The translations under genes were made by a program, and so were the position numbers. Below are positions 1 through 259 of a stretch of DNA of 259 bases, one piece after another; the stretch's first letter is position 1, and the number at the start of each line of letters is the position of its first letter. The notes beneath the pieces are model-generated. The model did not search any database, had not been told where the DNA came from, and was given only the letters and a program-made list of their open reading frames with translations. Origin of the DNA: Escherichia coli (GTDB lineage: Bacteria; Pseudomonadota; Gammaproteobacteria; Enterobacterales; Enterobacteriaceae); NCBI RefSeq assembly GCF_003334385.1, contig NZ_QOWN01000217.1, one strand, 5' to 3'.

Positions 1-259
1 CCAGCGCTTCAATCTCTTTTTTCATCGTGCGCTGTCTGACATGAATTTCCAGACCTTTGGTAAACATCGCCTGCTCTGCAGCAGCACTCAGAGCAATCAG
101 TGTTTCAGCGTCCATCGGTACGTCATTATTGTCCGCATCCGTCCAGAAAAACGCCTCCGGCAGTTTCCCCGCTTTCGCTGCCGCCACCGACGGCTCAAGA
201 CGCGTCTGCGTTGACTTCCCGTAGTCCCATTTACGCCCATTGTGCTCAAACGTGTAGTT
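1..259 (-). CDS. Partial CDS, both ends outside the window; hypothetical protein, possibly a phage tail-fibre-assembly-like (Tfa-like) accessory protein (functional call is low confidence)
   Basis: Seen in sequence: the reverse-complement reading frame starting at position 259 is open for all 86 codons (plus positions 259 down to 2), with no TAA/TAG/TGA. The translation has a balanced, protein-like composition, while the other two minus frames hit stops quickly (one at the fourth codon, the other after about 53 codons) and the mirror plus frame gives an Arg/Cys/His-rich product typical of antisense noise. Third-position G/C bias and codon choice fit enterobacterial coding sequence. Functional hint is from memory only: the segment E5-W39 (EHNGRKWDYGKSTQTRLEPSVAAAKAGKLPEAFFW) loosely resembles the lambda Tfa region EDHRGKTVYD...GPLPENVTW. 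The confidence value refers to the existence of the CDS, not to the function. Confidence 0.8.

Follow-up and report, generated by a model that had tools for sequence, protein, structure and literature searches.

The start-like ATG on the minus strand of this stretch (the window, 259 nucleotides in full) is almost certainly the codon of Met170, an ordinary internal residue of a DUF4376 protein and likely fibre chaperone, at which Met or Leu is probably kept for helix packing. This methionine is a structurally conserved internal residue of a gene that had been annotated before. The features discussed below are the following, all on the minus strand.

1..259, minus strand: internal segment of the DUF4376-protein gene, codons 92-177 plus one base of 193 (100% identity, translation, Pfam)
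8..109, minus strand: codons 142-175, single long alpha-helix of the helical body, modelled to hold Met170 (AlphaFold2 and DSSP)
17..22, minus strand: AAA AAA, encoding Lys171-Lys172, of which Lys171 is nearly invariant in the family and Lys172 is lineage-specific (column and codon counts)
20..55, minus strand: codons 160-171, family signature G-[FWL]-x-I-H-x-R-Q-R-x-M-K (column counts, alignment consensus)
23..25, minus strand: ATG, codon of the conserved hydrophobic helix residue Met170 and almost certainly not an initiation codon (homologue columns, anti-SD energy, helix model)

Source gene and its surroundings

The whole window is 100% identical to part of NZ_CP027323.1, where it falls within the coding sequence of WP_106894450.1. 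Sequence 100% identical to the window is also carried by the phages PhiR5_1, PhiR12_2_star and PhiR12_4 and by E. coli chromosomes such as that of strain 2013C-3033, and in every matching record checked the window lies within one annotated gene. The gene goes under the names of "DUF4376 domain-containing protein" in RefSeq, ORF-191A in P-EibA and "tail fiber assembly protein" in PhiR5_1. In locus L001 the coding sequence occupies 4728..5309 (193 codons and the stop) and the window corresponds to 5001-5259. The coding sequence of a tail fibre ends at 4711 of the same locus, and the DUF4376 gene starts directly downstream of it on the same strand; P-EibA and PhiR5_1 have the same arrangement of the fibre gene followed by the DUF4376 gene. 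In gene order, J and (lom) come first, followed by a collagen-repeat Stf-like tail fibre, the DUF4376 gene, eib (encoding an immunoglobulin-binding adhesin of YadA-like type), a small ORF and an S6-family autotransporter.

Several other observations were made in this region. The translation of the 496-residue upstream tail fibre (L001 3221-4711) contains long collagen-like Gly-X-Y tracts (GPxGxxG...). The cargo downstream (L001 6002-10259; L002 3918-7186) consists of a YadA-like trimeric autotransporter of the Eib family and an S6-family, EaaA-like autotransporter peptidase, with an AT-rich spacer of about 700 nt between the tail genes and the cargo; this is a classic moron arrangement. Among 5,426 complete E. 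coli genomes, 141 contain the window sequence; the number of places per genome has a median of 3 and reaches 7, and the identity is mostly 80-90%. Such multiple matches per genome indicate that several co-resident lambdoid prophages carry paralogous copies of a conserved module, which would be a ready substrate for recombination. Two overlapping plus-strand ORFs, at window positions 41..214 (57 codons) and 57..224 (55 codons), are antisense to a well-supported conserved coding sequence and were rejected as spurious.

The ATG and the start of the gene

The 12-mer ATGAAAAAAGAG lies on the minus strand at window positions 25-14 and is made up of the ATG (plus 25-23), the A6 run (22-17) and GAG (16-14); around it the minus strand reads ...GTC AGA CAG CGC ACG ATG AAA AAA GAG ATT GAA GCG CTG. 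A preliminary description of this DNA had placed the ATG and the A6 run correctly, and its interval of 16-25 for the motif is trivially short of the 14-25 that the 12-mer spans. It had also given the frame as open for 78 codons upstream of the ATG and, indeed, the minus-strand translation is open from 259 to 26 and across the whole window, while the other two minus-strand frames contain stops. Beyond position 259 the in-frame coding continues as far as the annotated start, an ATG that lies 273 nt upstream of the window and has AGGAG eight bases before it. The flagged ATG is the codon of residue 170 of 193, with 24 codons left before the stop, this Met included.

The two ATGs differ in their pairing with the 16S anti-Shine-Dalgarno (anti-SD) sequence, at -7.4 kcal/mol for the annotated start versus +0.4 kcal/mol for the 20 nt upstream of Met170. 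The latter value is weaker than that at 96% of the positions of the gene, and no Shine-Dalgarno sequence is present before Met170, as had been noted from the letters of the window. Translation would thus start at the ATG with the AGGAG Shine-Dalgarno, 169 codons upstream of Met170, and would neither start, end nor shift frame at Met170 itself.

The ATG-AAA-AAA motif as such is unremarkable, because it is expected in frame a few tens of times per E. coli genome from amino-acid and codon frequencies. The exact 12-mer had 0 occurrences in 200 shuffles, though almost any 12-mer would behave likewise. What does go beyond chance is that Met-Lys is conserved in the protein, which appears from the alignments to reflect protein structure and not initiation.

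Conservation of Met170 and Lys171

Homologues were compared at three depths. The close set comprised the 120 nearest database homologues (54-98% identity), and all of those listed but one carry PF14301. Met170 and Lys171 are invariant in the 116 of these proteins that occupy the columns (116/116), and the Lys172 column holds Lys in 113 and Arg in 2. The N-termini of 94 of the 120 align at or just before query residue 1 and the latest aligns at residue 81. No homologue has its N-terminus aligned with Met170, either among the 120 close homologues or among 150 diverse representatives, the latest aligned stretch of the latter beginning at residue 132.

At the nucleotide level, the Met codon is ATG in 81/81 related viral loci, down to 37% identity; this set is partly biased, as TMKKEIEA, one of six peptide patterns by which it was gathered, includes the motif. 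The close-homologue search is free of this bias, and so is a phmmer search against 1.84 billion cluster representatives, which gave 125 mutually diverse proteins covering the Met170 column. Residue 170 is Met in 104 of these and Leu in 15 (12%), with 6 having another residue; Lys171 is present in 123/125 and Lys172 in 12/124. Homologues therefore align across this methionine (116/116 in the close set, 81/81 in the viral loci, Met 104 plus Leu 15 of 125 in the diverse set) and none begins there, which bears out the ordinary internal methionine favoured in the preliminary description.

The two residues close a family signature, G-[FWL]-x-I-H-x-R-Q-R-x-M-K, whose columns have the following counts among the 125 diverse representatives: G160, 108; I163, 110; H164, 108; R166, 106; Q167, 116; R168, 113; M170, 104; and K171, 123. 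Further along, residue 174 is V, I or L in 125/125 and residue 177 is L or M in 105/122. Positions 163, 167, 170, 174 and 177 are spaced 4-3-4-3 and all are conserved (I; Q; M/L; V/I/L; L/M).

Predicted structural role of Met170

An AlphaFold2 monomer model was built from a 105-sequence alignment (mean pLDDT 97.4), with secondary structure assigned by DSSP. The model has strands at residues 3-11, 18-25 and 32-37, helices at 43-53, 70-90, 106-120 and 142-175, and a hairpin at 93-97/100-104. Met170 is near the C-terminus of the 34-residue helix 142-175, for which the pLDDT is about 98.

In this model, Met170 would sit on a conserved seam (I163, Q167, M170, I174, L177) with a spacing of 3-4 residues. 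Because the seam positions are conserved with 4-3-4-3 spacing and lie inside helix 142-175, we infer that Met170 is a packing residue, a reading drawn from conservation, heptad spacing and the monomer model. Met or Leu would be retained at position 170 for helix packing on the hydrophobic seam that runs along the chaperone body's main helix, and Met170 may possibly fall within the trimer core proposed for DUF4376 chaperones. The neighbouring Lys171 is conserved family-wide, with the second Lys and the choice of AAA codons being probable accidents of lineage.

Slippage at the A6 run

The preliminary description had also raised the possibility of slippage at the A6 run. A programmed ribosomal or transcriptional slippage site at A6(G), giving a C-terminally altered protein, is very unlikely. 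Runs of the A AAA AAG type can be slippery in E. coli, as in dnaX, and the +1 frame stays open for 37 more codons after the run here. However, the 0-frame phase is AAA-AAA-G, as opposed to the canonical A-AAA-AAG, and the run is broken in 59 of the 81 related loci by synonymous AAG or other codons. The lysine codon pairs in these 81 loci are AAGAAG in 31, AAAAAA in 22 and AAGAAA in 14, with a non-Lys second codon in the other 14, and Lys172 itself is found in merely 12/124 diverse relatives. A slip into the -1 frame meets a stop after 5 codons and would yield only a truncation, while the 37 codons of the +1 frame are unremarkable and run through the hairpin region that follows the stop. Moreover, efficient transcriptional slippage usually needs runs longer than A6, so the run is too short by that measure as well. 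No match at E<=1, and no stimulatory element, was found in Rfam on either strand of the window. The A6 run thus looks, from the codon counts, like an accident of synonymous codon choice.

For the AAAAAAG sub-lineage, which includes the window, one could imagine low-level +1/-1 slippage, or weak SD-independent initiation at Met170, yielding a minor product; we consider this extremely improbable. If it were true, fibre assembly might be modulated by this minor product, either a chaperone altered at its C-terminus or a helical peptide of 24 residues.

Right after the TGA stop (L001 5310-5340) there is an A7 run and then a G+C-rich hairpin (AGGGGCGCTCCAGCCCCT). A terminator scan scored this hairpin on the opposite strand, where it has a T7 tail; on the coding strand the T tail is weak. 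In PhiR5_1, a 55-codon 'hypothetical protein' (L003 4306-4473) has a GTG start overlapping the stop codon and spans the post-TGA hairpin; this ORF is probably not a real gene.

Internal initiation at Met170

Initiation at this ATG would release a separate 24-residue C-terminal peptide (MKKEIEALDDAEAILAYKVGMADR). Many bacterial N-termini look like this, with A-rich Lys codons after the ATG; A-rich sequence downstream of a start can favour initiation, and Met170 is highly conserved. The position nevertheless has no Shine-Dalgarno sequence, its anti-SD energy (+0.4 kcal/mol) being below that of 96% of the gene's positions, and the product of only 24 amino acids would be the severed end of helix 142-175. 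In addition, Leu replaces Met at residue 170 in 15/125 diverse relatives, as would suit a structural hydrophobic residue. The lack of any database protein with its start at or near Met170 is a weak point, since gene callers would skip 24-aa ORFs. With no Shine-Dalgarno, 24 codons remaining and homologue N-termini elsewhere, the internal initiation site that had been offered as an alternative has next to no chance of being correct, and the ordinary internal methionine is retained.

Family and likely function of the protein

The protein belongs to Pfam DUF4376 (PF14301), which was the single domain found in a Pfam scan (residues 73-183, model positions 2-102 of 106, i-Evalue 4.4e-20). PHROG "tail" families match it end to end (phrog_1141, E=2.5e-78), and the Foldseek matches among viral predicted structures are DUF4376 and tail assembly chaperone proteins. 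No NCBIfam family matched. In the PDB, a Foldseek search by fold gave nothing at E<=0.001 (best E 0.33), and a search by sequence gave no match at E<=1 other than a chance hit to the colicin I receptor Cir. The latter joins residues 85-108 (NAMEAANYTFEHNGRKWDYGKST; minus strand 187-258, with residues 92-108 within the window) to Cir 245-267 at E=0.95; this similarity is not significant and is probably due to chance.

DUF4376 proteins encoded directly after tail-fibre genes have been described as intermolecular fibre chaperones (PMC7289586, PMC10579305, PMC7882524). For example, gp27 of the Alteromonas phage V22 is needed for active fibres (PMC7289586), and the H-fibre of Campylobacter CJIE1 needs the DUF4376 gene downstream of it (PMC7882524). 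For A5 gp9 and V22 gp27, models show trimeric helical "caps" in which the N-terminal beta-strands are paired with the fibre head (PMC10579305). Because the gene studied here is directly downstream of a side tail-fibre gene, its product most likely acts as an intermolecular tail-fibre chaperone of a lambdoid E. coli prophage.

Comparison with known systems

The closest functional parallels are the V22 gp27 and A5 gp9 chaperones (PMC7289586, PMC10579305), with which the protein shares the DUF4376 match and a gene position immediately 3' of a tail-fibre gene. Its model has the architecture of V22 gp27-like proteins, with three beta-strands at the N-terminus together with a helical body and a beta-hairpin, the comparison with the published description (PMC10579305) being qualitative. 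A further likeness is that its N-terminal part and the fibre tip co-vary. The host and phage type differ, the present case being a lambdoid prophage of E. coli whose fibre is Stf-like with collagen repeats, and the beta-hairpin is short. By position, architecture and co-variation, the DUF4376 protein would work like the V22 gp27-type fibre chaperones in its putative role.

The nearest described locus is that of the P-Eib prophages of E. coli ECOR-9, which carry ORF-191A/C/D/E (AF151091, AF151674-6). Identity of the window to orf-191A is 99.2% and to orf-191C/D/E 96-97%, and the gene order is the same: J, lom, an orf-401-like fibre, orf-191, eib, orf-156 and an eaaA-like autotransporter. P-EibA, in contrast, diverges strongly in two stretches, the N-terminal 80 residues encoded by the DUF4376 gene and the ~100-170 residues that end the fibre. 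The exact allele of the window is that of strain 2013C-3033 and phage PhiR5_1, not that of P-EibA.

Members of Caudo_TAP (PF02413), namely lambda Tfa, Mu U/TfaMu and P2 G, share the position after a fibre gene and the same presumed role in fibre folding. The protein here, however, matches only DUF4376. Because neither the Caudo_TAP HMM nor a solved Tfa structure matches it, it can be regarded as Tfa-like in its presumed role while not being a member of the Tfa/Caudo_TAP family. DUF4376 has been said to correspond to the conserved C-terminus of Mu TfaMu (PMC7882524); this equivalence is not supported for the present protein, for which Pfam gave no Caudo_TAP match and neither the sequence search nor Foldseek gave a relevant match to a solved structure.

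Mosaicism of the fibre and chaperone genes

Relative to P-EibA ORF-191A, identity is about 98% over residues 81-193 and 10-45% per 20-residue block over residues 1-80; in the DNA of the gene it rises abruptly at nucleotide 241, from about 50% to 93-100%. The fibre has the opposite pattern, with residues 1-320 at least 95% identical to those of P-EibA and residues 400-496 only 15-37% identical. The divergence is thus complementary in the fibre and the chaperone, which suggests that the fibre tip and the chaperone N-terminus were exchanged together as one cassette. Recognition of the cognate fibre by the N-terminal strands would lead one to expect such an exchange.

The same region can be followed outside the window in the alignment of L001 3221-4967 with L002 1208-2900, where identity falls to 10-47% over the final ~100-170 fibre residues and the initial ~80 residues encoded by the DUF4376 gene. 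The remainder of the fibre and DUF4376 genes is 95-100% identical to P-EibA, and the breakpoint is at the point where the DUF4376 domain begins.

Tail-fibre and chaperone genes of phages have a mosaic make-up, which this DUF4376 gene shares, but a domain junction at Met170 itself, as had also been suggested, with a C-terminal module starting there, is hardly credible, as Pfam DUF4376 runs uninterrupted over 73-183, one continuous helix (pLDDT about 98) spans 142-175 and the actual recombination or module boundary is near residue 80.

Significance

For the ATG itself, the outcome is that a false lead is removed: the start-like string of codons is an internal, conserved Met-Lys motif of an annotated prophage gene, and it matters very little. 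A mildly useful by-product is the description of the protein as two modules, a variable N-terminal region of ~80 residues that would be swapped together with the fibre tip and a conserved C-terminal DUF4376 body that carries the I-H-x-R-Q-R-x-M-K signature. This two-module organisation fits the published model in which DUF4376 proteins are fibre-specific chaperones.
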